Shown here piece after piece: positions 2,820 to 63,122 of a stretch of 63,122 nucleotides of DNA. The notes under the pieces are model-generated. The model saw only the letters and a list, made by a program, of their open reading frames with translations. It was not told the origin of the DNA and did not search any database. Both the position numbers and the translations under genes were made by a program. The number at the start of each line of letters is the position of its first letter. The first letter of the stretch is position 1. Source of the stretch: an uncultured Gammaproteobacteria bacterium (lineage in GTDB: Bacteria; Patescibacteriota; Microgenomatia; CAYXHB01); the NCBI GenBank assembly GCA_964561945.1, contig CAZLQM010000004.1:1-63122 (forward strand), read 5' to 3'.

Positions 2820-2845
2820 AAACTAACTCATCTCCAGAGTATAAT
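2816..2845 (+). promoter_or_regulatory. sigma70-like promoter candidate for the small-ORF cassette
   Basis: TTGAAA (2816-2821), an 18-nt spacer, then TATAAT (2840-2845), about 110 nt upstream of the ATG at 2956. Confidence 0.4.
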
Positions 2846-2955
2846 ATCCAACGTAGATCGTTTTCATATCACATTCGATATGAATCATCGACCTGCAAAA
2901 GTACATTTATAAGTCAAGCAGTTACTATTTTTTTCAAGCTCAAAGGAGAGCAACC

Positions 2956-3321
2956 ATGTCTGTATTGATTACTGACGACCGCATCAAATTCGGGGTCCAA
3001 GAAGCCTCCAAAATCCGCGCTCTTACCCCCGACACAATTGAATCAATTAATAATATTAGGATTCACACTCGCGGGATGGAACAAACACCCGAGGATTTGG
3101 CGCACCAAATCAATCGGTGCACCGCTCCCCAATCCAAGTCGGACGTCCTTCGGATTCTAGCAAACGCGTTCTCTGATCAACCAGATTTTGTTAAGCAAAC
3201 CAAGGGGCTGGTTTTCCCCAAGGTCACATCCCATGAAAACCAACCCACGGCCCCCAAGCGCACTCGACCTCTCCTGATGGATCTCAGCACTTTCTACCGC
3301 CGAACTGGTACTGGAAAATAG
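2956..3321 (+). CDS. hypothetical small protein (121 aa)
   Basis: ORF preceded by AAAGGAG 7 nt upstream of the ATG and followed by a strong intrinsic terminator. No motif recognised. Confidence 0.55.
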   Translation: MSVLITDDRIKFGVQEASKIRALTPDTIESINNIRIHTRGMEQTPEDLAHQINRCTAPQSKSDVLRILANAFSDQPDFVKQTKGLVFPKVTSHENQPTAPKRTRPLLMDLSTFYRRTGTGK

Positions 3322-3342
3322 TTAACTTCCCACGACTTCCCA

Positions 3343-3377
3343 AGTCTGGGCTCTTACCCAAGGGTCCAGACTTTTTT
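3343..3377 (+). terminator. rho-independent terminator
   Basis: A 13-bp stem (3343-3355 pairs with 3360-3372, including 2 G-U pairs), a 4-nt loop ACCC, then T6 at 3372-3377. Confidence 0.8.
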
Positions 3378-3461
3378 GTTGTATAATTCACTCCAAGTTC
3401 ACTAAAGCTACAACTGCGTAGCTCCACATGAAGCACATTCACAAACAGAAAGGTTAGACTG

Positions 3462-3704
3462 ATGTCACCTCGCAGAGCTCAATCTCGTTTTGTCGAACAA
3501 TACGAAAAAAATCCTGACGCCGCGCTAGAAGAAATAGAGGTCAGATTATCTAGTGTTATCGATGGCACAAAGATATGCCTAATAAGTGCCGTTGTTGATA
3601 ATGCTTTTGATGAAGCTCAAACATTTCTGGACACACTAAAAGGTTTGCAAAACATGGCCACCCGTCCACCACGTTCTCCTCAAGATTCCAACAACATTTC
3701 TTAA
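3462..3704 (+). CDS. hypothetical small protein (80 aa)
   Basis: ORF with GAAAGG 8 nt upstream of the ATG. No motif recognised. Confidence 0.45.
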   Translation: MSPRRAQSRFVEQYEKNPDAALEEIEVRLSSVIDGTKICLISAVVDNAFDEAQTFLDTLKGLQNMATRPPRSPQDSNNIS

Positions 3705-3728
3705 TATTCCCCAGAAAGGCAACTACTC

Positions 3729-4061
3729 ATGTCCAACTCAATCTTTAACAATGGATCTTTCCCCAGCGCCCAAGATCCAGACAGTAGTATTCCCCGAGAA
3801 ATCAAATCTGCTCAGGCAGAATACCTCGATTTACTCGAACAAGCTATCCGGCTAGCCCCTCAAGCAGATCGCAAATTTCAAGTAATCGTTCTCGAAGATC
3901 TTGCCAATCGAGTCCGGGTAGAAATGGGGATCCCCACTGCTCACATATTTCCACTTGAAATCACTTTGGCAAACATGCAAGACAGAGCAAGCAGATCAGA
4001 TCCCTCCATCTCTCGTATCTATCAAGAATTCGTAAAACAGACCCGCAAGGACCGTAACTAA
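3729..4061 (+). CDS. hypothetical small protein (110 aa)
   Basis: ORF with GAAAGG 9 nt upstream of the ATG, 24 nt after the previous ORF, followed by a terminator hairpin. Confidence 0.5.
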   Translation: MSNSIFNNGSFPSAQDPDSSIPREIKSAQAEYLDLLEQAIRLAPQADRKFQVIVLEDLANRVRVEMGIPTAHIFPLEITLANMQDRASRSDPSISRIYQEFVKQTRKDRN

Positions 4062-4075
4062 CCTTTCCGTTCTCA

Positions 4076-4105
4076 AGCCTCTCTCCTCCCGAGGGAGGCT
4101 TTTTT
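4076..4105 (+). terminator. rho-independent terminator
   Basis: CCTCC(4085-4089)/GGAGG(4094-4098) stem with a CGAG loop; an alternative outer AGCCTC/GAGGCT pairing exists. T6 follows at 4100-4105 and overlaps the stop of the convergent gene. Confidence 0.6.
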
Positions 4106-4775
4106 ATGCTTCCTTCCGATATATTGGTTTATCGGGTACCAGATAAATACTCCACGCTACCAATAACGAAACCACAATCTTCACAATTACATTCGTATAA
4201 AACATCTGCCCCAAAGCTCCCACGCTTACTACCCCTCCAAAAGCAATGATCGGAAATATAATACTATCCAACGGTATCGAAACTGCATTAGAGATCACTA
4301 CTCGCCACCACTGAGGTTTACCTTTACCAATTCCACTTACCCACCAACTATACACATACGTATCTGCCACCTCACTTATTAACCCCGCCACTACAGATCC
4401 AATTACAATCCGCATTTGTAACGAAAATATAAACGCCCACGCCACTTGTCCTCCGGCATCAGCCCAACTACTCTCAGCTGGCAAAATCACAACCAACTGA
4501 AAATAAAGTGCCGCCAAGAAATTAAGCAATCCACTCATATAAACCGTCGTCAACGCAGCTCTAGCCCCTAATTGTTTATGTATCAAATCCCGCAAGGTAA
4601 ACGTCAACGCATATATCAATCCGCCGTCCATCACCCAAGGCCCAAGATAAGTTACCTTAGTCGCCGATACATTCGCCACTAACCCCGCAAACACGTATAA
4701 AGTACTCACAATTATGGCCAACTCCATCCGCGTTGGCCTCACCAAATATTTCTTTATAAATCGCATAATCCTCAT
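4104..4775 (-). CDS. yhhQ: queuosine precursor transporter (YhhQ/DUF165, VUT family)
   Basis: 223-aa multi-TM protein with family-like segments TFTLRDLIHKQLG, SEVADTYVYSW and SNAVSIPLDSIIFPIIAFGG. Confidence 0.7.
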   Translation of the reverse strand: MRIMRFIKKYLVRPTRMELAIIVSTLYVFAGLVANVSATKVTYLGPWVMDGGLIYALTFTLRDLIHKQLGARAALTTVYMSGLLNFLAALYFQLVVILPAESSWADAGGQVAWAFIFSLQMRIVIGSVVAGLISEVADTYVYSWWVSGIGKGKPQWWRVVISNAVSIPLDSIIFPIIAFGGVVSVGALGQMFYTNVIVKIVVSLLVAWSIYLVPDKPIYRKEA

Positions 4776-9094: not shown

Positions 9095-12000
9095 ATGTCA
9101 AATTCCGACGCTTCATACCTTGATAAAATACAATTCCCCTCCTCTCTCAACCAATCCTTCATCGCCAAATATCTCAAGAACTTTAGAATTCCTCTCCTCA
9201 TTATTTTAACCCTAATTCTCGTCGGAGTTTCTAGTTACAACCTCCTCCCCAAACGTCTTAATCCAGAAGTCAAAATCCCCATAATCACTGTCATTACTTC
9301 AGCTCCAGGATCAAATGCCACCGACATCGAAGACTTAATCACCAACCCCTTAGAAAAACAAATCAAACAACTCTCCAACATCAGTGAATTCAACTCCATT
9401 TCCCAAGACAACTTATCATTAATTACTATACAGTTTGAGTCAAAAATCCTTGCCAAAGATGCCCAAAATGACGTCCAAAACAAAGTAAACCAAGCCAATC
9501 TCCAAGGAATCCTTACTACTCCCCAAGTCCAGGCTCTCGATTTTGAAGATCAACCCATCTGGACTTTAGCAATCACAGGACTCCCCTCTCAAGAACTCAA
9601 CCAACAAGCTCAATTACTCAAAGAAAATCTCGAAAATCTATCTCTAATTAATCGAGTTACCCTCTCAGGAGCTCCTCAAAATCAAATAAACATCAATCTT
9701 GACCTTCAAAAAATCCAAAACTACGGTCTTAATATACCTCAAATTTCCACAGCCATTTCCCAAAGTTTACAAATCACTCCTGCAGGTTCTGTTTCCAACA
9801 ACAAATATAATTTTACAGTTGCAATAGCCTCATCTATCAACAATCTAGACGAACTCAGGAATCTTCCAATTTCAGTAGGGAACCAAATTCTTCCATTAGG
9901 ATCAATTGCTCAAATTATCCAACAACCCAAACCCAACTCTTCTCTCACCTATATTTCCAACTCACAAATCAAAAACGAAGAAGCAGTCATCCTCTCCATT
10001 TACAAAAATTCCCAAAGTGATATCGTCGCCACAGGCAATCAAGCCCAAGCCTCAATCGATCAATTTATAACCCAAAATCCCCAAATCAAACTCACTACCC
10101 TAACCAACGTCAGCCAAGATATCAATCAACAGTTCAGTGATTTAATTCGTGAATTCCGCACCACAATTTTGCTTGTAGGCGGCACACTGTTACTCTTCTT
10201 AGGTGTCAGACAAGCCTTAATCAGCTCTCTTACGGTACCCCTCACTTTTCTTTCTGCCTTTGCTATCATGCAGGCCTTCGGTCAATCAATTAATTTCCTA
10301 TCTCTCTTTGCCTTTTTACTTGCCCTAGGATTACTCGTTGACGACACCATCGTCATCGTCTCTTCAATGACTTCATATTATCAAACAAAAAAATTTACTA
10401 CCCTCCAAACAGGACTTCTCGTTTGGCGCGACACCATAGTCCCAATTTGGTCAACCACCCTTACCACCATTTGGTCATTCGTCCCCCTACTTCTCAGTAG
10501 TGGCATTATTGGAGAATTCATCAAACCAATTCCCATTGTTGTCACCGCCACCATGCTATCTTCAACCGCCATTGCTGTATTTATCACTCTTCCATTAATG
10601 ATCGTCATTCTCAAACCTCGTATCCCAACTAGAGTTACAATTTTAATCAAACTCATAACTTGGATCGCACTTCTCACCGCCGTTATATTTATTAGTCGCA
10701 ACACCCCGCTCCTTCCTCTAATCATTACAATTTTCATTATCATTACCATCATCACCTTATTAATTCGCAACCAACTTCAAACTCATACATCACCGTTCCA
10801 AAAACAACCTTCAATCAAAAAAATCTCTTCTTTTGCCCAACAATTAATGGATAAGAGACTCATAAATATTCAACCTCTAAGCAACGGATACTATAATTTA
10901 ATCAAGCGAATTTTATCCAACAAATCAAGTCGTCGCAAAGTAGTCATTGCCAGCATCTCATACGCCCTGATTTGTTTTGCTCTCTTGCCTCTAGGTCTAG
11001 TCAAAAACGAATTTTTTCCCAAAACAGATAACGACATATTCTACATACAGCTCAAACTACCTTCAGGCACTTCAATCAATCAAACCAATACCAAAGCTCT
11101 TAACTTCATTGATACTCTATCATCTATACCTTATATAACTTTTATTACCACGGAAGTTGGCAAATCTCTTAGTGATCTCCAAGCCTTATCTTCCCAAGAT
11201 AACCAAATCCTTTATACATTGCGACTTGTACCTGAAAAGGACCGTCCATATAAATCTTATGAAATTACCGAGCATCTCCGAAATCAATTTCAAAATTATT
11301 CAGACACGATTCAAGTCCTCGAAGTAAGCGCAGGCCCCCCAGCTGGAGCTGACATTCAAGTTACATTTTTAGGAGATAATCTTAACGATTTAGAAACCAC
11401 CGCAGATAAAGCAGTTGCATATCTCAAACAACAACCCTCTGTTGCCAATCCCAACAAATCTCTTAACCCCAGCACCAGTCAAATCAATTTCCAAATAGAC
11501 TCTCTAGCCCTTCAACAATCTCAAATCTCCCGCAACCAAATTTCACAAGCCGTCAACCAAATCACCAAACCCCAAACTCTCGGCGCCCTTAGTTTAGCCA
11601 CCGAAACCACCGACCTTCCTCTGGTCCTTAATCTAACTTCCCAACCGCCTCAGGTAGAATTACTTAATCAAATCACCATTCCCAATTCAAAAGGACAACT
11701 TATTCCACTCTCTACTCTTGGTACATGGCAGGCTCAAATCAGCCCTCAAATTATCACCCACGACAACGCTACTAGATCAGTCACAGTTACAGCTGCCACT
11801 AGACCCAACTTCAATACAACCCAAGCCAACCAAGATTTACTTACTCAAATCCAATCATGGCAACTTCCTTCAAATGTTACATGGAAAACAGGCGGTGTAA
11901 ATCAAGAAAACGCTCGTTCTATTCAATCCATCCTCCTTGCTATGCTCTTATCCGCAGTCTTGATTCTCATCACCATGGTACTTCAATTCAGCTCTTTCCG

Positions 12001-26983: not shown

Positions 26984-28753
26984 CTACATTCCAACCCGCA
27001 AAAACATCTTCTCCATTTCTTTCCATGTAATCAATATCTCTACAGGTCTGCCATGCGGACACGTAAAAGGTAATTTACACTTGCGCAAATCCTCAACCAA
27101 ATACTCCATCTCTCTCTGAGTCAATCGTTGTCCCCCTTTAATTGCGCTACGACACGACAAATACGTCAAAACCTTCAACTGCTCATCACTTACTCCATCC
27201 ACATTTGATTCCTCTATCAAATCCCCCGCCATCTCTACCAATGCTCGTCTCATATTCACTTCCTCCCATCCGCTTGGGACACTCAAAACACGCACCTCAT
27301 CTTCCACAAAATCTAATTCAATTCCTATCTTTTTCAACAATTCTCTTTGTTCATAAAGAGCTTCTCTTTCTCTCAAGTCAACCTCTATCTTTACTGGCAA
27401 CAGCACGTCCACTCTTCTACTTATCTTTTCCTTCAATCCCTCCATTAACTTCTCATACCTTATTCTTTCGTGAGCTGCATGCTGATCAATCAACGCCATC
27501 CCTCGCTCCTCCTCAAACACTATATACAAATTGTGCATCTGCACAAATTTATTACCTAAATTGCGATCACTCGTTCCCGTCTCATCATTAACCACGTCAC
27601 CCAACCCTAACAACTCCAAATTCAAATCCAAATTTACCGCCCTCTTTTCCCCTTGCCATCTCTCCCGATTTATCGCCAAACCCCCTCCCCCACCTCTCAA
27701 TCCTGATTTCCAGTCAAATTCTTCTATTACTCTAGAATCTTCTTCCCCCCGCACAAATTTCAGGTCTTCTTTCTTTATCTCGCCATCAATCATCTTTGTA
27801 ATCGCACTATAAACCCCAAACGGGTTCACATATCTAACTTCTTCCTTCCTCGGATGGACATTTATATCCACCATATCTCCAGGCATAACCAAATACAAAA
27901 TCCACGGCACCTGATATCTTGGTGGCAACAGACTTCCCAAGGCTTCTTTTACACTTCGCATAATCCCTCGATCTATCACCACTCGATCATTCACAATTAC
28001 CACCTGCCTTGAGCCTTTCTCCTTGCCCAGTTGTGGCTTACCCACCATCCCCCATATTTTCCAATGCAAATGATCATATCCGACTTCAAACATTTGTTTC
28101 ACCACTTCCGAACCATAAATACTTCTAATTCTTTCTTTAATATCTCCACCGCTTACCAAGTCCAAAAACAACTTCCCGTTATGCCAGAGCCTTATTCCCA
28201 CACTAGGACACGCCAACGACAGTCGCTCAACCATTTCCAAGCAATATCTCCATTCCGTGCTTCCCGTCCGCAAAAACTTCCTCCTTGCAGGTACATTAAA
28301 AAACAAATCTTCTACCACTACTCTCGTCCCTCTACTCATTCCAATCTCTCTTTTAGTTATTAATTTTCCTCCTTCAACTACAACTTCCCAACCCCCTACT
28401 TGTTTTTCAACCTTGCTTGCAATCCTAAATTTTGACACAGCACAAATACTCGCCAACGCTTCCCCCCGAAACCCCATCGTCTTAACTGCCAACAAATCCT
28501 CAATCTTACCAATCTTGCTTGTTCCATATCTCACAATCGCCAATTCCAAATCCGATTTTCCCATACCACCACCATTATCAATTATTTCTATCTTATCTAT
28601 TCCTCCATTTTCTAATCGAATCTCTATCTCATTTGCTCCTGCATCAACTGCATTATCCAATAATTCTTTGACAATTGAGGCGGGCCTCTCCACTACTTCA
28701 CCCGCCGCAATCTGATCCGCTACCTCACTTGATAATATTTTTATCTTTCCCAT
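26984..28753 (-). CDS. mutL: DNA mismatch repair protein MutL
   Basis: [34 protein letters not shown] and [10 protein letters not shown]. The C-terminal region contains [11 protein letters not shown] and TCPHGRP. Confidence 0.95.
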
Positions 28754-28773: not shown

Positions 28774-31368
28774 CTAAATCTTCTCCTTAATCCGAGCTAT
28801 CCAGTTCAAAGCCTCAACCGGAGTCATCTCATTTATTTTAATGTCCCTTAATTCATCAATTACTGCCTCTTCTCGTTCACTCTCCAACCCCATCTGCACT
28901 ACCATTTGCGGTTTCTTAATTGCCATTTTTTCCTTACCTTCCAATAAAGACAACACCTCTTTAGCTCGAGTTATTACTTCCTCTGGCAAACCCGCCATTT
29001 CTCCCACAGCTACACCATAACTGTGCGAAGCTCCACCACTCACCACTTTATGCAAAAATATCGGCACCCCCTTATCATCAGCCACAGTCGCCTGATAATT
29101 TACAATCTGCTTATACTCATTCGCCAATTGTTGCAATTCATGATAATGAGTTGCAAATAATGTCAATGGTCCACAATTACTCCATTTTTTCGATACCAAA
29201 TACTCACTTATAGCCCACGCAATACTTATCCCATCAAACGTACTTGTACCTCGCCCAATTTCATCCATCACCACCAAACTTCTCTCTGTCGCATTTGCTA
29301 AAATAGTTGAAGTCTCAACCATTTCCACCATAAAAGTAGACAATCCTTTTCCCATTGCATCGCTTGCACCACTCCTTACAAAAACTCGATCCCCCAACGA
29401 CCATTCCATCTTCTTTGCTGGCACAAAAGATCCCATCTGTGCCATTAATACCAAAATCGCCACTTGTCGCAAATACACAGACTTACCGGCCATGTTTGGA
29501 CCAGTCAAAATTATTACATTTTTATCACAATCCAAACTCACATCATTGGACACAAACCTCCCTTGATTTATCTTTTCTACCACTGGATGTCTACCTTCCT
29601 TGATATTCAAACCTTTACTATTAATCAAAATTGGCCGTACATATCTATTTTTCACTCCAATCTCAGCCAAATTACTTATCACATCAATTACTCCTATCGC
29701 ATGCGAAAACTCTTGTATAACTCGCAAATTATCACTAATCAACGCTACCATTCTCTCATAAATCCTCGATTCAATTACTAATATTTTCTCATCAGCTTCC
29801 AACACTTTAATTTCATGTTTCTTCAAATCATTCGTAATAAATCTCTCACCGTTAACTAACGTTTGTTTCCGTTCATAGTCTTCAGGCACCAAATTCAAAT
29901 TTGCATTACTTATCTCAATATAAAAACCAAACACTCGATTATATTTTACCTTCAGTGAATTAATCCCTGTTCTTTTTCTCTCTTGCTGTTGATACATTTC
30001 TAACCATTCCTTGCCTCCTTTTTTAACTAAACGCAAATCATCCAATTCTTTATCAACACCATCTTTGATTAAACCACCAGATTTTACATCTCCTGCAGGT
30101 TCATCAACCAATATTCTATCCAATTCCTTCCACAAAATACCCAAATTTTTCTCATCTATTTTTTTCACCTGCTCACCCAACAACTCCGTCGCACCTCCCA
30201 ACAACTCTCGTAAAACCAATCCTTCTTTAATCGAATCTCGAATACCCGCCATATCCCGTCCATTCCCCCACCCAGTCAACAACCTTGTGGCCATCCGTTC
30301 TCCATCTCGTATTTTTCCCAAACTTTCTCTTATACTTCTTCGTAAATCACTATTTTTCACCAAACTCCAAACCGCATTAAGCCGTTGATTAATTAGTTCC
30401 TCATCTACCAAAGGCCGTCCCAGCCAATTCCGTAGCAATCTACCACCCATCGAAGTTTTCGTTTCATCCAAAACACTAATCACACTTTCTCCTTTCTCCC
30501 CGCCCAAAACCCCAAACAACTCAAGATTAAGAATCGTCGCCCTATCCAAGTTCATTAACTTATTGTTACCCCATTTACCAATCGCCCGCACCTGAACTGC
30601 AGACTTTTTCTGCGTATACTCCAAATAATCAAGCAAGGCTCCGCTTGCTTCAATTGCCAAATCATCTCTTCCTCTCTCAAGTTCCCATACCTCCAGTGGC
30701 TTACCCAAAACACTTCTTATTTTCTCGCTAGTTTTCGCCACACCACTCTTCCATTCTCTAAACAGAAAAATATTCGCATTCGTATGCAATTTGATAAAAG
30801 CCAATAAATCAGTATTTTCATATATCTTTGCGGGCAATATGCACTCAACAATATTTATGACTCCCAGCTCATTTACCAATCCCGACATTCCATCTCCTAG
30901 TAATTTTTGATTGCACAAAAACTCTCCCGTTCCCGCATCAATCATCGCCATCCCAAAACTTTTCTTCTCTATCACCAAGCTCACAATATAATTAGACCTC
31001 TTCACTTTCTCGACATCTCCCAACATCGTTCCGGCACTCACCACTCTCACGACTTCTCTCTTTACCAATCCAGGTAAATTCGGATCACTAACCTGCTCCG
31101 CAATAGCCACCCTATACCCTTTGCTAATTAATTTTGAAATATATCCCTCAGCAGCATGATACGGCACTCCTGCCATCGCAATCTTGCCATCCTTGCCCTT
31201 GTGTCGACTCGTCAAAGTAATATCCAATATTTTTGCTCCAATCCGAGCATCATCCATAAACATTTCATAAAAATCTCCCAACCTAAAAAACAAAACACAC
31301 TCAGGGTATTGCTCCTTAATCTCCATGTATTGCTTCATCATTGGAGTCGAAAACTCATCACTGCTCAT
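28774..31368 (-). CDS. mutS: DNA mismatch repair protein MutS
   Basis: TPMMKQYMEIKEQYP, FFRLGDFYEMF, Walker A GPNMAGKSVYLRQ, DEIGRGTSTFDG and THYHEL. Start set at the ATG at 31368; a GTG at 31392 is also open. Confidence 0.95.
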   Translation of the reverse strand: MSSDEFSTPMMKQYMEIKEQYPECVLFFRLGDFYEMFMDDARIGAKILDITLTSRHKGKDGKIAMAGVPYHAAEGYISKLISKGYRVAIAEQVSDPNLPGLVKREVVRVVSAGTMLGDVEKVKRSNYIVSLVIEKKSFGMAMIDAGTGEFLCNQKLLGDGMSGLVNELGVINIVECILPAKIYENTDLLAFIKLHTNANIFLFREWKSGVAKTSEKIRSVLGKPLEVWELERGRDDLAIEASGALLDYLEYTQKKSAVQVRAIGKWGNNKLMNLDRATILNLELFGVLGGEKGESVISVLDETKTSMGGRLLRNWLGRPLVDEELINQRLNAVWSLVKNSDLRRSIRESLGKIRDGERMATRLLTGWGNGRDMAGIRDSIKEGLVLRELLGGATELLGEQVKKIDEKNLGILWKELDRILVDEPAGDVKSGGLIKDGVDKELDDLRLVKKGGKEWLEMYQQQERKRTGINSLKVKYNRVFGFYIEISNANLNLVPEDYERKQTLVNGERFITNDLKKHEIKVLEADEKILVIESRIYERMVALISDNLRVIQEFSHAIGVIDVISNLAEIGVKNRYVRPILINSKGLNIKEGRHPVVEKINQGRFVSNDVSLDCDKNVIILTGPNMAGKSVYLRQVAILVLMAQMGSFVPAKKMEWSLGDRVFVRSGASDAMGKGLSTFMVEMVETSTILANATERSLVVMDEIGRGTSTFDGISIAWAISEYLVSKKWSNCGPLTLFATHYHELQQLANEYKQIVNYQATVADDKGVPIFLHKVVSGGASHSYGVAVGEMAGLPEEVITRAKEVLSLLEGKEKMAIKKPQMVVQMGLESEREEAVIDELRDIKINEMTPVEALNWIARIKEKI

Positions 31369-31421
31369 ATTAGGCTCTATCCTACCACGCACTTAACAAA
31401 CAGGAGTACAATCAAAACCAA

Positions 31422-32723: not shown

Positions 32724-33344
32724 CTACCAACGGCTACCACCTCGGTCGCCACCTCCTCGGTAACCACCTCGGTCGCTTCCACCGCCACCTCCTCGGTAAC
32801 CACCTCGGTCACCGCCACCACCGCCTCGGTAACCGCCTCGGTCTCCTCCGCCACGGTTATATCCGCCACGGTCTCCACCTCCTCGATAACCTCCACGATC
32901 TCCGCCACCACCGAATTCACGGCGTTCTGGCTTTGGTTGAGCAATATTAACTTGCATTGGCCTATCAGCCAAAACATAATTGTTAAATTGTTTAACAGCA
33001 GCTTCAGCTTCACTTGGGCTTGAAAATTCTACAAATCCAAATCCCTTGGACCAATCCTGTTTGAATTTGTCCATGATAATGACAGCATCAACAACTTTAC
33101 CAACTTGCGAAAATAATTCTCGCAAATCTTCAGCTCTTACAGTGTATGCAAGATTACCGACATAAAGTTTGGCATTGTTAGATCCCGCAGATTGCGCTAC
33201 CGCATCTTGGTCACCAGCCATACCACGTTGTGTTTCTTCGTCTACAGTCATGTCATCTGACACAACTCCATCGTCAGCTACAACAGTTCCATTGTCATCA
33301 GCTACTACTACTTCATCTTCTTCTTGAGTGTTTGTATCGTTCAT
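32724..33344 (-). CDS. RRM-type RNA-binding protein with an acidic N-terminus and an RGG-repeat tail
   Basis: RNP-2 is LYVGNL and RNP-1 is KGFGFVEF. The tail carries six GDRGGY(R/N)-type repeats. GGAGG lies 11 nt upstream of the ATG at 33344; the track GTG at 33356 lies inside the SD. Confidence 0.9.
   Translation of the reverse strand: MNDTNTQEEDEVVVADDNGTVVADDGVVSDDMTVDEETQRGMAGDQDAVAQSAGSNNAKLYVGNLAYTVRAEDLRELFSQVGKVVDAVIIMDKFKQDWSKGFGFVEFSSPSEAEAAVKQFNNYVLADRPMQVNIAQPKPERREFGGGGDRGGYRGGGDRGGYNRGGGDRGGYRGGGGGDRGGYRGGGGGSDRGGYRGGGDRGGSRW
32727..32912 (-). repeat. in-frame tandem repeats encoding the (G)nDRGGYRGG tail
   Basis: Repeated cctcggtaacc/acctcggtc units on the + strand. The protein tail reads GGGGDRGGYRGGGDRGGYNRGGGDRGGYRGGGGGDRGGYRGGGGGSDRGGYRGGGDRGGSRW. 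Confidence 0.85.
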
Positions 33345-33527
33345 GAAAAAAGTCACCTCCTCCCCAATCCTCTTCTGTCAACTTTCCTCTCCAATGTTAA
33401 TTTCGATGCCGAAAGCTCTCCAAAACTAAAAGATTGTAATCTTATTATATCACAACCTGCCTCTTGCTCCTGAGCAATTAGTTAGATAAGCTAAATATGC
33501 GCACATCTATCACCACCAATTCTGCCC

Positions 33528-53899: not shown

Positions 53900-53986
53900 G
53901 GAGGAGTGCGAGAGCGGTCTAATCGGCACGCCTGGAAAGCGTTGCGGGGGGAAACTCCCACAAGGGTTCGAACCCCTTCTCCTCCG
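53900..53986 (+). tRNA. tRNA-Ser (anticodon GGA)
   Basis: Acceptor GGAGGAG/CTCCTCC, anticodon loop CTGGAAA, long variable arm, T arm AAGGG-TTCGAAC-CCCTT. CCA is not encoded. Confidence 0.85.
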
Positions 53987-54017
53987 CCCTCACCAAATCC
54001 ACCAAAACATACCCCAA

Positions 54018-57878: not shown

Positions 57879-57898
57879 AAATCAACATATCATATTTG

Positions 57899-57970
57899 CG
57901 CTCCCAGAGGGAATCGAACCCCCATCCTCGGTTCCGGAAACCGATGCTCTATCCATTAAACTATAGGAGC
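57899..57970 (-). tRNA. tRNA-Arg (anticodon CCG)
   Basis: The reverse complement folds with acceptor GCTCCTA/TGGGAGC, anticodon arm TCGGT-TTCCGGA-ACCGA and T loop TTCGATT. Confidence 0.85.
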
Positions 57971-58688: not shown

Positions 58689-59123
58689 TCATTTTATATT
58701 AAACCCATCACCCAACCAACTCATATCCTTTAATAATTCACTTATTTTATCAGACAAATCAACCAAATCCTCATAATAAACAACTTTTCGAGTACATGGG
58801 ATTCCTGTAATCATTATCGAAGGTTCAACATTTTTCTTACAAATCGCTATACACAGAATATTGTTTTCTTGTGCCATCTGAAACTCCATCCCTACCCCCA
58901 TCGAAGGACTCGAAACCTCCCCAATAAATAAACTACATTTAGTAATTACCCTATAAGTCCGATCATAAAATTCACGAGGAGTCTCTTTGCTGTCCCAAAA
59001 ATCAGGATATGTCCCAATAACCTTATCAAAATATGGCTCACACAACTTCATGAGATGTCTATAAATAGGCAAATAATCTTGTCCAAACAAATGAATCGGT
59101 CCAAATATATATACAGATTTCAT
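58689..59123 (-). CDS. nucleoside 2-deoxyribosyltransferase-like protein (native, skewed composition)
   Basis: 144 aa. The N-terminal strand is KSVYIFGP. SSPSMGVGMEFQMAQENNILCI resembles the NDT-fold Glu-containing motif. Confidence 0.45.
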   Translation of the reverse strand: MKSVYIFGPIHLFGQDYLPIYRHLMKLCEPYFDKVIGTYPDFWDSKETPREFYDRTYRVITKCSLFIGEVSSPSMGVGMEFQMAQENNILCIAICKKNVEPSIMITGIPCTRKVVYYEDLVDLSDKISELLKDMSWLGDGFNIK

Positions 59124-59364
59124 AATATGTTAAACGTACCACTCCAAGCACTCTGGCGGCGTTTCTTGGACAAAGTTCAAACTCTTCACGAGGAAAGTCC
59201 CAATGAATTTGAAGACTGATTCGCGCGCCTCGCGACGTTTTGTGGTAGTGCGAAAGTCCGCTCACACACTCCATCAACTCCGCATTGCTTGTTCATTCCG
59301 CTATAGCGACTTCACGCTGGCTGCTTCGGCGTTTGTAGTGTGTTCGCTTTGTGGCTTCGATGAC
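59124..59364. other. GC-balanced, hairpin-rich non-coding segment (candidate small RNA or island junction)
   Basis: No credible ORF. Stems are TCCAAG/CTTGGA (59143-59170), TTCAAA/TTTGAA (59176-59212) and TCGCG/CGCGA (59221-59235). Also contains the palindrome CGCTATAGCG (59299-59308), GAGGAAAGTCC at 59190-59200 and GAAAGTCC again at 59252-59259. Confidence 0.3.
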
Positions 59365-59814
59365 CTACCCAATCAAGCTCAAATCACCCTCAAGAACTAC
59401 TGGTTGCATTCCAAGTATTTCTTCCTTGAAAGCAGACTCTTTGGGTAAGCTGTTTAAAATGAAAATCTTTTTATCTTTTCCAAACGCGTAACCGATCTCC
59501 AAGAAAGTATTGCCACCGATGTAATCCTCAACTCCACGCTTTTCGTAGTTGGTAATTAAAACTGCGTCAGATTCGTCAATCTTTTTAAGATGTGCTTTTA
59601 TCGCCTTACCTTTCTTTTTCCAAACTTCATGACCTTGTGGAAATGCGTCAACTCCACCGTGACGATCAAAAAAGCTACCGACCGAAGTATCATCGCCTTT
59701 AGTTTCAAATTCCAGTTCTGGAGCCACAACTGTATGCCCAAGTTTTTCGAGCTTCTTCTTCACCTCTTGAAATTGATGATAGAAAGCCATTGATGAGCAG
59801 ATGCAGATTTTCAC
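59365..59814 (-). CDS. nucleoside 2-deoxyribosyltransferase-like protein (islet copy)
   Basis: 149 aa. MKICICSSMAF... and GGNTFLEIGYAFGKDKKIFILN resemble the NDT-fold catalytic-Glu motif. Confidence 0.5.
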   Translation of the reverse strand: MKICICSSMAFYHQFQEVKKKLEKLGHTVVAPELEFETKGDDTSVGSFFDRHGGVDAFPQGHEVWKKKGKAIKAHLKKIDESDAVLITNYEKRGVEDYIGGNTFLEIGYAFGKDKKIFILNSLPKESAFKEEILGMQPVVLEGDLSLIG

Positions 59815-59817
59815 AAT

Positions 59818-60381
59818 TCAAAAATTAAAATGATTAACAATTAACTCGGCAGACTCATTTGCAGAATGTCTGGTCGTGTCAATTCTTAGATGATTAGGAA
59901 AAGGAAATTCATCCTCTTCAGAGTTCATTCTGTAATTCTCAGTGTCAGCAAGTAAGTTGTTATTTGACCACTCAACATTTCTTTTCGAGGTTTTATGTTG
60001 CAAGCGGTTTTCGGTGGCGTTTCGCTCCAACCGAGTATCTTTATCACCCAGAAGTTCAACGTAGTAAACACTATGACCACCTGCAATAAATTTATCATTA
60101 AATTCTCTTACTTTTCCCCAGTCGCTTTCAAGATCAAAAGCCCATATCATGGTGAATATAAAACCCCCCAGATCTTTTGAAGTAGCTACCTCGTTAATGA
60201 TTTCTGTTCGAAAAAGGTTCACCAATCTTTTTCCCGCTGTAGTGAAGTAATCGAAAAAGTGCGAAACCAAATCAATTGTCATATGATTATGGAGTAAAGG
60301 ATAGCCAGTCAATTTAAACAATTCTTGTGCTATGGTCATCTTACCTACTGCATGGGGAGCAAATATAAATACACTATTCAT
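59818..60381 (-). CDS. P-loop NTPase / small-molecule kinase-like protein
   Basis: 187 aa. The Walker-A-like motif is IFAPHAVGKMT, in a compact kinase-sized fold. It overlaps the upstream HIT gene by 8 nt. Confidence 0.45.
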   Translation of the reverse strand: MNSVFIFAPHAVGKMTIAQELFKLTGYPLLHNHMTIDLVSHFFDYFTTAGKRLVNLFRTEIINEVATSKDLGGFIFTMIWAFDLESDWGKVREFNDKFIAGGHSVYYVELLGDKDTRLERNATENRLQHKTSKRNVEWSNNNLLADTENYRMNSEEDEFPFPNHLRIDTTRHSANESAELIVNHFNF

Positions 60382-60874
60382 AACTTTGTTTAATTTTTCC
60401 TGCTAATTCTTTCAAATCTTCAGGGTTTGCCATCGGTCCACTACCCGAAGAAATCCAACCCTCATAATTATCAAACCAGAATTCTTTTTCACTTAATACC
60501 TGTTTCCATTCACCTTGTTTTAAATATTCAGTGCCGTGCATAGGAACAAGCTTTACGTGAGCATAGTTAATGCCCGTGCCCTCCATTATTAGTCCAACTC
60601 TCCCAACATCATCAAAATAATTTTCAAGAACTTGTGCTACTTTTTTGGAGGCAATAATAAATTTTTGCAAAATATTATCAGGCATTTTTAGTACATCACT
60701 ATCGAAATGCTTTTTGGGTATTACACAACTAAATCCTTCTGTGTTTGGATCAATGGAAAGGAAAGCCATAAACTCTTCATCTTCCCAGAATTTTCCCGCA
60801 GTTTCTATATTTCCTGTAACGATCTCACAGAAAATACATTTATTGTCTTTTGTTGTTGGTTCGTATTTGCTCAT
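60374..60874 (-). CDS. HIT-superfamily protein with a degenerate histidine triad
   Basis: N-terminal KCIFCEIVTGN, typical of HIT proteins. The triad position reads NYAHVKLVPMHG instead of HxHxHxx. Confidence 0.55.
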   Translation of the reverse strand: MSKYEPTTKDNKCIFCEIVTGNIETAGKFWEDEEFMAFLSIDPNTEGFSCVIPKKHFDSDVLKMPDNILQKFIIASKKVAQVLENYFDDVGRVGLIMEGTGINYAHVKLVPMHGTEYLKQGEWKQVLSEKEFWFDNYEGWISSGSGPMANPEDLKELAGKIKQSYE

Positions 60875-60887
60875 GTTTATTCTTTGA

Positions 60888-61514
60888 TTAGTCTTTTATT
60901 ATATCCTTGCTCAACCCAAAATTCATACGCTTTCCATACATTACATCATCAGGTATTTCTTGTTCAATCTGAAAACCTTTAGCTGGATACTCTTTGATTC
61001 GTTGCAAGCCTCCAACCATTGCATTTAGCCAGTGTTCGTCTTTACCGTTTGATTTATTTGGATATTCAGTTACAGGAATAGGTGGCGAAGTTACAATTAG
61101 CTCCACTTCTTTGGGCAAATGTACTTTTCCAGTCGCATAAGTTCGTCATTCCATATACGGTTCTTGCACTGCGATAATTGTTTTCGGACTTATGCCTCTT
61201 TACGCTAACAGATTAAGAGCAAATTTATAATTTTCACCAGTATTTTGAGATTTGTTCTCAGTCAAAATTACTTCATCAGGTACACCTAGTTTTCGTGCGA
61301 CATTGGCAAAAACTTCTACTTCGGCGCTTCCTACAAATTGCTCGCGACCTGGCTTGTGATTATAGACATCACCAGAACCAGAAAACAAAACAGTTGGGGC
61401 TAATCCGTCAAAATAAAGTTTTACCGCATATTCCGTAACTCGAATATCACGCTTCCCAAGCACAAAAATTACATCAGCTTTTTTAGCTCGTGATTTATGT
61501 GCATATAGTCCCAA
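60888..61514 (-). pseudogene. YdcF/DUF218-family gene with two in-frame stop codons
   Basis: A single frame reads ...KADVIFVLGKRD...SAEVEVFANVARKLGVPDEVILTENKSQNTGENYKFALNLLA[TAA 61200-61202]RGISPKTIIAVQEPYME[TGA 61146-61148]RTYATGKVHLPKEVELIVTSPP.... No frameshift. Confidence 0.7.
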
Positions 61515-61545
61515 GTTTTCTCAATTGCTTCTTGTTTATTCATAA

Positions 61546-61750
61546 TTATTCAAGTAATTCATCACTCGTTACCTCAAGCGCGGCAATTTTTTCAATAGTC
61601 ACCAATGTTGGATTATTTTTACCAGCTTCAATGTTGCTCACATATGCACGGGTCCAAGCCCGTCTTTCGGCAAACGTCGCCTTGCGTCATCTGCTTCTCC
61701 TCACGGATACGTTTGATATTGTTTCCCAACTTTATTGACGGATTTTTCAT
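61546..61750 (-). pseudogene. XRE-family (Cro/C1-type) HTH regulator with a 1-nt insertion frameshift
   Basis: MKNPSIKLGNNIKRIREEKQMTQGDVCRKTGLD, then a shift at the GGG/CCC run (61650-61652). With one base removed it reads RAYVSNIEAGKNNPTLVTIEKIAALEVTSDELLE*. Total length is 205 nt, i.e. 3n+1. Confidence 0.65.
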
Positions 61751-61972
61751 ATCTGTAAGTACAGCATATTACTAGTTGTTGTTTGCTACAATCATGACAA
61801 CCTCTTCAAAGCGACGAAGCCAAAACCATAAAATTTCCTATCATTTTTAGTGCGGCTCCCCCAGACCCCCCGCCGGAAAAATAATTGTAAGGAAATTTTT
61901 GGTTTTGGTTAGCGACCGAAGGGAGCGCGAGACGACACGATCGCTCCTGCAGTTTCAGGCAAAAGTGAAAAT

Positions 61973-62063
<91 letters not shown>

Positions 62064-62081
62064 CTAAAGTTACAAATACGG

Positions 62082-62155
62082 TGCACCCAGGGGGATTCGA
62101 ACCTCCGACCTACAGTTCCGCAAACTGTCGCTCTATCCAACTGAGCTATAGGTGC
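62082..62155 (-). tRNA. tRNA-Arg (anticodon GCG)
   Basis: The reverse complement is GCACCTA-TA-GCTC-AGTTGGATA-GAGC-G-ACAGT-TTGCGGA-ACTGT-AGGTC-GGAGG-TTCGAAT-CCCCC-TGGGTGC-A. There is one A-C mismatch in the T stem. Confidence 0.8.
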
Positions 62156-62213
62156 ATTAAGCCTATTTTACCTCATTTATCACTTTTTATACTATTTTCG
62201 CTTCAACCTAAAT

Positions 62214-62912: not shown

Positions 62913-63003
62913 GGAGGAGTCGCATAGCTCGGTCCATTGCGGGGGATTGCTAATCCCCTGAGTCGTAAGACTCACGTGGGTTCGAATCCCACCTCCTCCG
63001 CCA
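62913..63003 (+). tRNA. tRNA-Ser (anticodon GCU), CCA encoded
   Basis: Acceptor GGAGGAG/CTCCTCC, anticodon arm GGGGA-TTGCTAA-TCCCC, variable arm GAGTC-GTAA-GACTC, T arm GTGGG-TTCGAAT-CCCAC. Confidence 0.9.
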
Positions 63004-63122
63004 ATCAAGTGGGATGAGAAGCTATAGTCCAGCAAGCGCAAGCGTGATGGAAATCCCACCTCCTCCACCAATCAAGTGGGATGAGAAGCTATAGTCCAGC
63101 AAGCGCAAGCGTGATGGAAATC
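63004..63122 (+). repeat. 67-bp tandem direct repeat, each unit ending in a copy of the tRNA-Ser(GCU) 3' end (att-like); truncated by the window edge
   Basis: Unit 1 is 63004-63070. Unit 2 begins at 63071 and its 52 visible nt are identical to unit 1. The tRNA 3' 19-mer aatcccacctcctccgcca (62985-63003) recurs at 63052-63070 with one change (g->a at 63067). Confidence 0.85.

Follow-up and report, generated by a model that had tools for sequence, protein, structure and literature searches.

Strand asymmetry is a feature of vertebrate mitochondrial DNA (see also PMC3269012). The host of the locus described here, a Patescibacterium from a bioreactor, carries a GC skew that is similar to the mitochondrial one in size and form, with G down to about 3-4% at the four-fold degenerate sites of the C-rich strand, and that is likewise indifferent to coding orientation, but it sits on a bacterial chromosome. 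Here, we describe an islet of foreign DNA at positions 59125-61974 of a 63,122-nt stretch of this chromosome (contig CAZLQM010000004.1; the whole stretch is referred to as the window), located between a tRNA-Ser(CGA) gene and a native gene encoding a protein of 144 aa. We read it as a recent, strain-variable insert of Parcubacteria type that entered at the tRNA junction, is decaying and has not yet begun to ameliorate, and we give this reading as a whole a probability of about 0.8.

The closest described counterparts of the islet are the tRNA-associated genomic islands and islets (PMC2704930). Like them, it lies beside a tRNA 3' end, has an atypical composition, is present in some strains and absent from others, and carries accessory cargo that is decaying. 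It differs from them in being very small (2.85 kb), in lacking an integrase, flanking direct repeats and mobility genes, and in replacing a 33-nt spacer with no target duplication. In itself the islet is unremarkable, being a short and decaying stretch of horizontally acquired DNA that sits at a tRNA gene and has no integrase.

For the host, the closest parallel comes from the Microgenomatia order UBA1400 (the Ch65 bacterium, Ca. Collierbacteria and Ca. Beckwithbacteria), where a strand disparity between G and C extends over the whole chromosome, with 29.8% C and 15.0% G on one strand (Kadnikov et al. 2020, PMC7143001). Its authors proposed unidirectional replication as the cause and left the cause open; the words 'horizontal' and 'island' are absent from their paper, and unskewed segments were apparently not treated there as acquired DNA. 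The disparity of our host resembles that of UBA1400 in having about 30% C and little G on one strand, no disparity between A and T, and genes on both strands. It differs in that the skew is stronger (-0.47 against about -0.33) and that our host is known here from 63 kb.

Strand disparity of the host

On the + strand of the 63-kb window, 29.9% of the bases are C and 10.9% are G. The resulting GC skew of -0.467 keeps its sign across the whole 63 kb, and the AT skew is 0.013. Native blocks of 60 nt contain on average 6.3 G and 18.2 C. The skew at four-fold degenerate sites (four-fold skew, read on the + strand) is about -0.6 to -1.0 in native genes on either strand, and it is equal for genes on the + and - strands, i.e. 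the orientation of a gene has no effect on it.

This disparity is old. The closest relatives of the host MutS protein are 85, 64 and 62% identical to it, and no other exceeds 48%, the next matches being mixed Patescibacteria. The contigs that carry the three relatives (5-13 kb) have an overall skew of 0.43-0.46 in magnitude and a four-fold skew of 0.6-0.95. These values match the skew of the window at MutS identities of 62-85%, and the disparity is therefore an old trait of the lineage. MutS is kept intact both in the host (28774-31392) and in these skewed relatives, and simple loss of mismatch repair therefore does not explain the extreme strand bias. MutL is called directly downstream in two of the relatives, and the window has an open reading frame (ORF) at the corresponding position (26984-28753, - strand).

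Composition of the islet

The composition of the islet is foreign. An earlier note on this DNA, made from the sequence alone, had singled out 59124-61972 as an unskewed segment in a strongly skewed contig on the strength of a few base counts, which are exact (59161-59220, G12/C11; 59281-59340, G16/C16; 60001-60060, G13/C17). Sliding skew, segmentation and 3-mer profile all rank this segment first, and the islet is the top outlier in both of the plots, of skew and of k-mers, that the note had suggested. The GC skew of 59124-61972 is -0.154, compared with -0.482 for the remainder of the window. Across all sliding frames of 2849 nt the mean skew is -0.471 (standard deviation 0.091), and the maximum of -0.143 is reached by the frame starting at 59151. 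Segmentation by G-versus-C likelihood places 58976-62161 at the top with a score of 79, the runner-up scoring 26, and the strand-specific 3-mer distance is greatest on the islet, where it reaches 0.369 (median 0.175, 95th percentile 0.255).

The islet and the features that adjoin it are as follows:

58689-59123, - strand: native flanking gene, 144 aa, with a DNPH1/MilB/NDT-like predicted fold (NDT, nucleoside 2-deoxyribosyltransferase); its ATG lies 1 nt from the left junction
59125-61974: the islet, 2850 nt, a strain-variable foreign segment in place of which a sister strain has a 33-nt spacer
59125-59364: left edge, unskewed non-coding DNA (G 56, C 64), now the 5' leader of the native 144-aa gene
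59365-59814, - strand: intact ORF of 149 aa with a weak NDT resemblance; four-fold skew -0.20
59818-60381, - strand: intact ORF of 187 aa, a small P-loop protein resembling nucleoside monophosphate (NMP) kinases, Walker A motif APHAVGKM; four-fold skew +0.10
60374-60874, - strand: intact HIT ORF of 166 aa (Pfam HIT, E = 7.6e-8)
60877-61543, - strand: YdcF/DUF218 pseudogene (Pfam DUF218, E = 2e-12)
61546-61750, - strand: XRE-type HTH regulator, C-protein-like, broken by one frameshift
61822-61906: palindromic element upstream of XRE, found by inverted-repeat search, with arms AAAACCAAAAATTTCCTT and AAGGAAATTTTATGGTTTT and a G/C-rich loop
61973-62063, - strand: tRNA-Ser(CGA), called by ARAGORN; its 3' end, with CCA encoded, is the right junction

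At four-fold sites, the four larger ORFs of the islet have skews of -0.20, +0.10, +0.17 and 0.00. Pooled, these sites hold 32 G and 32 C, compared with 137 G and 1147 C in the native genes of the minus strand (Fisher p = 5e-14). All islet ORFs lie on the - strand, as the earlier reading had it and the ORF listing agrees, and among 46 unskewed homologs of the HIT gene the coding strand has a skew of +0.19 +/- 0.06, the islet HIT gene standing at +0.25. The residual skew of -0.15 in the islet is due to the usual coding-strand excess of G, read from the opposite strand, and not to partial amelioration.

A lack of skew might also arise in native genes that resist it through selection on codon usage or on protein sequence, as the conserved RRM_1 gene of this window (32724-33356) appears to do: its four-fold sites are AT-rich and show no skew, in this genome as in two relatives. 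As an account of the islet, we consider this most improbable. Two of the five islet genes are pseudogenes, the non-coding edges are as unskewed as the genes, and the segment is absent from a sister strain. In addition, at four-fold sites the remaining low-skew stretches of the window (33.5-35.2, 21.6-22.0, 40.1-40.9 and 55.3-55.7 kb) carry the full native skew (-0.78 to -0.89); they reflect amino-acid or protein constraint rather than acquisition.

An empty site in a sister strain

The islet is an insertion/replacement polymorphism among strains. Logan contigs from three bioreactor runs (X1, X2 and X3) were placed on 57.0-63.1 kb. In run X2, a contig from a sister strain of about 97% identity joins position 59124 to position 61975 through 33 unrelated nucleotides, and so supplies the empty site that had been anticipated, with tRNA-Ser beside the 58689-59123 gene and 33 nt between them. 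By this joint, the islet occupies 59125-61974: it begins 1 nt upstream of the 144-aa gene's start codon (ATG) and ends within the CCA of the tRNA. Both of the edges proposed from the sequence are thereby confirmed, the left one at the start of a native gene and the right one, with the joint at 61975, at the CCA end of tRNA-Ser(CGA). The 33-nt spacer of the empty site is not retained in the islet, where similarity to it is not above chance; the event therefore replaced the spacer.

The empty-site contig has a single mismatch to the window over its first 830 nt and then diverges by about 13% across 58832-59124. A second X2 contig runs from the tRNA into the right flank and differs solely in the inter-tRNA spacer at 62071-62080. 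The sister allele of the 144-aa gene is an intact and natively skewed ORF, with 11 amino-acid differences, mostly conservative, and 32 listed nucleotide differences. Contig L004 was considered as a source of polymorphisms within the islet and set aside: all 13 of its mismatches fall in its last 63 nt and were treated as an end artefact. Relatives of the 144-aa gene were also followed as a route to syntenic empty sites, and all 28 of their loci proved to be unskewed and unrelated contexts.

The tRNA junction

The right junction lies within the tRNA 3' end. We compared the tRNA 3' ends at 53975-53989, 57898-57912, 61973-61987, 62080-62094 and 62989-63003. The tRNA-Ser(CGA) gene ends in ...CTCTCCG-CCA in the islet allele and in ...CTCTCCG-C-AGATGG in the empty allele, and CCA is not encoded in the native genes for tRNA-Ser(GGA), tRNA-Arg(CCG) and tRNA-Arg(GCG). 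Since the islet allele encodes CCA while the native genes and the empty allele do not, the foreign DNA brought its own tRNA 3' terminus, so that the right-hand crossover falls within the tRNA gene. Many members of the community share the final ~30 nt of tRNA-Ser(CGA), which reach a depth of 119-177 where the flanks have 4-8, and this shared stretch would be suitable as a short homology anchor.

The same shared stretch could instead have misled assembly, by joining a contig from an unskewed Parcubacterium to the host at the tRNA-Ser 3' end. Besides the high depth of the last ~30 nt, such a chimera is suggested by the JGI contig L001, which is otherwise 100% identical to the window (11.6 kb) and whose positions 1-105 are a different, tRNA-Ser(GCT)-like body, the switch falling exactly at the tRNA 3' end. 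That switch is explained by the sharing of the tRNA 3' stretch among many organisms, and it is the end of L001 that is probably chimeric. The left junction (59124/59125) lies in unique sequence, is present in four independent assemblies (JGI, two from ENA, and Logan) and is crossed by the window, by L001, L002 and L003, and by the Logan contigs of X1 and X3. The ENA contig L002 runs out of the islet and across all of tRNA-Ser(CGA), and the read depth of the islet equals that of its flanks, which also means that there is no second, free copy. With this evidence at hand, we regard a chimeric origin of the islet as highly improbable.

Among the five tRNA genes of the window, CCA is encoded only in the two tRNA-Ser genes (CGA and GCT) that adjoin foreign-looking DNA. 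After the second of these, tRNA-Ser(GCT) at 62913-63003, a 67-nt unit is repeated twice, with one mismatch, up to position 63122. Each unit begins with the last 19 nt of tRNA-Ser(GCT), AATCCCACCTCCTCCGCCA, followed by ...CCACCA. The DNA at 62913-63122 is G-rich, unlike native DNA, and the contig ends inside the array. The array could be a scar resembling an attachment (att) site, or else another variable insertion located at the 3' end of a tRNA-Ser gene.

Relatives of the cargo and the palindromic module

A search for a donor with the islet genes, another step suggested in the earlier note, produced unskewed relatives of Parcubacteria type for HIT and YdcF and no close donor. The HIT protein is 70-79% identical to hundreds of proteins from Parcubacteria/Patescibacteria. 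In 58 representative genomes with the HIT gene, among them those of Nomura-, Yonath-, Staskawicz- and Terrybacteria, it always lies in unskewed DNA, and the other islet genes are never found beside it, i.e. these genomes hold no conserved donor cassette. The YdcF pseudogene is 85% identical in nucleotides and 78% in amino acids to a gene of Candidatus Kaiserbacteria, and the gene pair HTH(XRE)-YdcF recurs in a Parcubacteria-like contig, L097. By DNA similarity, a phage origin was rejected, there being no match in phage collections, and so was a plasmid origin, for which only short, weak matches (69-73% over 130-170 nt) to AAA ATPase genes of Bacillus/Priestia were found.

The palindromic element of the islet, near the tRNA, belongs to a type that is about 85-110 nt long, in which the 18-nt arms keep their sequence instead of covarying and the G/C-rich loop varies. 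Together with XRE, it recurs in a phage-like IMG/VR contig, L099, which has an SPP1-type portal gene; identity is about 75-90% by eye, and the palindrome (9824-9925) and XRE there head a low-GC pair of genes for a C5-methyltransferase and a putative nuclease. The Parcubacteria-like contig L097 holds three copies of the palindrome (330-436, 742-853 and 3139-3249), and perfect 113-nt inverted copies flank an HTH-YdcF-peptidase cassette. A covariance-model search found one copy in the window, with no second one at the left edge of the islet or elsewhere in the window, and one weak extra match in 0.88 Mb of related Parcubacteria loci.

From these similarities, the end of the islet nearest the tRNA resembles a portable regulatory and cassette module that Patescibacteria and a phage have in common. 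An integron attC cassette was considered and rejected: the arms are conserved in sequence (AAAACCAAAAATTTCCTT), no GTTRRRY core is visible by eye, no integrase was seen, and the window has a single copy.

Decay of the cargo

The earlier note had counted two broken genes in a decaying element. We find four lesions in YdcF and one in XRE, as well as a motif change in HIT that goes beyond its description. The YdcF lesions were identified by alignment with 12 homologs at the protein level and 4 at the nucleotide level. The full-length DUF218 ORF of about 220 aa is not intact, being interrupted by two frameshifts and two in-frame stops: a 1-nt deletion in an A-run near the N-terminus; a TAA where the two closest relatives have CAA (Gln); a TGA at an invariant Arg codon, which is CGA, CGT or AGA in the relatives; and a 5-nt tandem duplication (ATGTA) near the C-terminus. 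In HIT, the substitutions D103N, H104Y and I107V fall within the motif GIDHAHIKLVP, and the first His of DHAHIK has become Tyr. None of the relatives in the alignment excerpt departs from this motif, and conservation at the changed positions is at least 85% (46 relatives with DNA available; 119 protein hits). As judged from these sequences, YdcF and XRE are dead, HIT appears to have lost its invariant motif histidine, and the islet is decaying, probably under relaxed selection.

The in-frame core of YdcF has changes in 7 of 90 conserved columns, compared with 1-3 in four intact homologs. All six of the changes at conserved positions that can be polarised are C>T or A>G on the - strand, and CAA>TAA adds a seventh. 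This is the direction of the host bias, in which the - strand loses C and gains G; the intact YdcF homologs have five changes with the bias and three against it. The pattern is suggestive (p about 0.01, from few sites). The P-loop gene of 187 aa shows the opposite trend, with one change in the direction of the bias and four against it; these changes probably predate the transfer, because the relatives of this gene are so distant.

A more far-reaching proposal, to which we would give rather poor odds, is that the islet could serve as a zero-time reference in which the dead YdcF gene records the raw, deamination-like mutational spectrum of the host, and that the palindrome-plus-XRE module, found also in a phage contig and in a cassette with inverted palindromes on both sides, may mark a so far undescribed family of small mobile gene cassettes exchanged between Patescibacteria and their phages. 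If this were true, C>T and A>G changes on the G-rich strand would be those expected from deamination of a long single-stranded strand, and they would support unidirectional or strongly asymmetric replication behind disparities of the UBA1400 type.

Mode of entry

All islet ORFs of at least 40 aa were listed, and the larger of these were compared with Pfam, NCBIfam, PADLOC or PHROGs, with each library applied to a subset. There was no integrase, recombinase or transposase among them, and a repeat search found no direct repeat or terminal inverted repeat in the islet. When the tRNA was aligned with 58900-59500 in search of a copy of its 3' end at the left edge, the scores were 15-16, with a null median of 17. 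The ORF scans and the repeat and alignment searches are thus in agreement with the statement in the earlier note that no integrase, transposase or direct repeat is visible, and the aligner search for att-like repeats that it had recommended returned none above chance. It had also called the tRNA 3' end the classical side of integration. The location holds; entry by means of an integrase found no direct support, and an exchange with its junction inside the tRNA fits at least as well.

The islet might nevertheless be the remnant of an integrative element or prophage that an integrase had inserted site-specifically into the 3' end of tRNA-Ser(CGA), and from which the integrase, the far att site and most genes were later lost through a deletion reaching the neighbouring gene. 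The position at the tRNA 3' end is the one that such an element would occupy, the CCA of the islet allele would correspond to a tRNA fragment carried by attP, the palindrome-plus-XRE module is shared with a phage-like contig that has a portal gene, and the neighbouring tRNA-Ser(GCT) is followed by a duplicate of its own last 19 nt. We nevertheless think this origin unlikely. The islet has no ORF for an integrase or recombinase and no copy of the tRNA 3' end above chance at its left edge; the native 33-nt spacer is absent and has not been displaced to the far end; and the later deletion would have had to stop exactly 1 nt before the ATG of the 144-aa gene.

In our preferred reading, that of an insert which entered by exchange at the tRNA junction, foreign DNA replaced the 33-nt spacer between tRNA-Ser(CGA) and the 144-aa gene. 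On the right, recombination would have been anchored on the widely shared tRNA-Ser 3' sequence, and on the left, an illegitimate join would have been made 1 nt upstream of the ATG. Delivery was possibly by a phage or a cassette-type element, as suggested by the recurrence of the tRNA-proximal module of palindrome, C-protein-like XRE and YdcF in phage-like and Parcubacteria-like contigs. Homologous exchange of a tract of about 3.2 kb may later have spread the islet among strains or removed it from some. Its cargo is decaying, probably under relaxed selection, and its neutral sites have not yet shifted toward the skew of the host. As the insertion is recent relative to the directional mutation of the host, the composition of the islet is still that of its donor.

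Several points weigh against this reading. The empty site rests on one Logan contig with a depth of 3.96x that ends 30 nt into the tRNA. Over the 290 nt adjoining the islet, the two strains are about 13% divergent, and both alleles are skewed; an exchange of alleles between diverged lineages of the same skewed organism, over about 58832-62080, is therefore also part of the polymorphism, and either strain may be the recombinant. Contig L001 links the islet to a tRNA-Ser(GCT)-like 5' half via a shared 33-nt 3' end, and the homology-anchored entry is a step that we infer. No donor above 85% nucleotide identity was found and no sampled genome has all five genes together, and the islet may be a mosaic or its donor may be unsampled. 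Lastly, when all nucleotide-level changes in YdcF are counted, 16 go with the host bias and 7 against it, which is not clearly different from the 43 to 34 in its homologs.

Gene content

The islet carries five small genes that appear to encode a regulator and nucleotide-related enzymes, a cargo with no evident function. The 149-aa ORF matches Pfam PF05014 (Nuc_deoxyrib_tr) with E = 5e-5, below the curated cut-off, and a single-sequence structure model of its protein was unusable, with a predicted local distance difference test score (pLDDT) of 37. For the 187-aa ORF, 1660 relatives were detected in the library, the best of them at 51% identity. The islet protein itself has no Pfam match; in an alignment of the ORF with 39 relatives, 25 of the 40 sequences match AAA_18 and 13 of the 40 match AAA_33, and the family profile weakly matches adenylate and shikimate kinases. 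On the basis of these matches, we call the protein a small NMP-kinase-like P-loop protein.

The read-through protein of XRE matches HTH_3 (E = 6e-13) and the PADLOC 'control protein' models (E = 6e-15), and by these matches it resembles the controller (C) proteins of restriction-modification systems. In L099, its close relative heads the pair of genes for a C5-methyltransferase and a putative nuclease. Unlike in C modules, the islet XRE precedes genes that are YdcF, HIT, kinase-like and NDT-like, there are no restriction-modification genes, and the regulator is frameshifted. A known defence system in the islet was considered and discarded, PADLOC having given generic HIT and HTH matches only.

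Next to the islet, the native 144-aa gene has a four-fold skew of -0.85. A structure model of its protein (pLDDT 69) has Foldseek matches to DNPH1/MilB with template modelling (TM) scores of 0.68-0.79. This gene, with its DNPH1/MilB/NDT-like fold, and the islet gene of 149 aa, with its weak NDT match, lie side by side. Two nucleotide N-glycosidase/transferase-like genes may thus be adjacent, a native one classed by its predicted fold and a foreign one classed by its profile match. Paralogy of the two was rejected, as they have no sequence similarity (E = 4.3).

In the left edge (~240 nt), there was no Pfam match in the translated frames, and searches of the islet edges against Rfam, at gathering and E-value thresholds, returned only tRNAs. 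A non-coding RNA in the left edge was considered and rejected, its folding being no better than that of shuffled sequences (z = +0.46).

Skew as a marker of acquisition

In a host whose neutral sites have about 3-4% G on one strand, any recent import is visible at the level of single bases, and its limits can be set to the nucleotide, as the empty site confirms here. Unskewed and half-skewed segments in complete genomes could therefore provide a cheap, alignment-free catalogue of gene flow into Patescibacteria, and pseudogenes in such segments could directly read the mutational process behind the strand disparity.

It had been proposed that the degree of local skew might act as a clock for acquired DNA. 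As a yes/no marker of acquisition, the skew performs extremely well; as a clock, it is uncalibrated and reads zero at this locus. With no measurable amelioration in the islet, the skew says only that the islet is young. The RRM_1 gene sets a further limit on this use. It lies on the - strand, and it and its counterparts in two relatives (L091, 5852-6469; L093, 178-798) are AT-rich and unskewed at four-fold sites, possibly due to codon selection in a highly expressed gene. Given that a resident gene is unskewed here and in two relatives, lack of skew alone is no proof of recency, and selection can hold a resident gene off the mutational equilibrium and mimic the signal of an import.

A second segment, at 2.8-4.1 kb, had been offered for comparison as a partly skewed cassette. 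The description applies to the ORF at 2956-3321, which has a four-fold skew of -0.37 with 18% G (n = 62), and not to its neighbours at 3462-3704 (-0.64) and 3729-4061 (-0.68), which are near native. The three small ORFs of this low-skew patch (2837-4136) have good Shine-Dalgarno sites and no Pfam or PHROGs match, and the patch may be an older acquisition.

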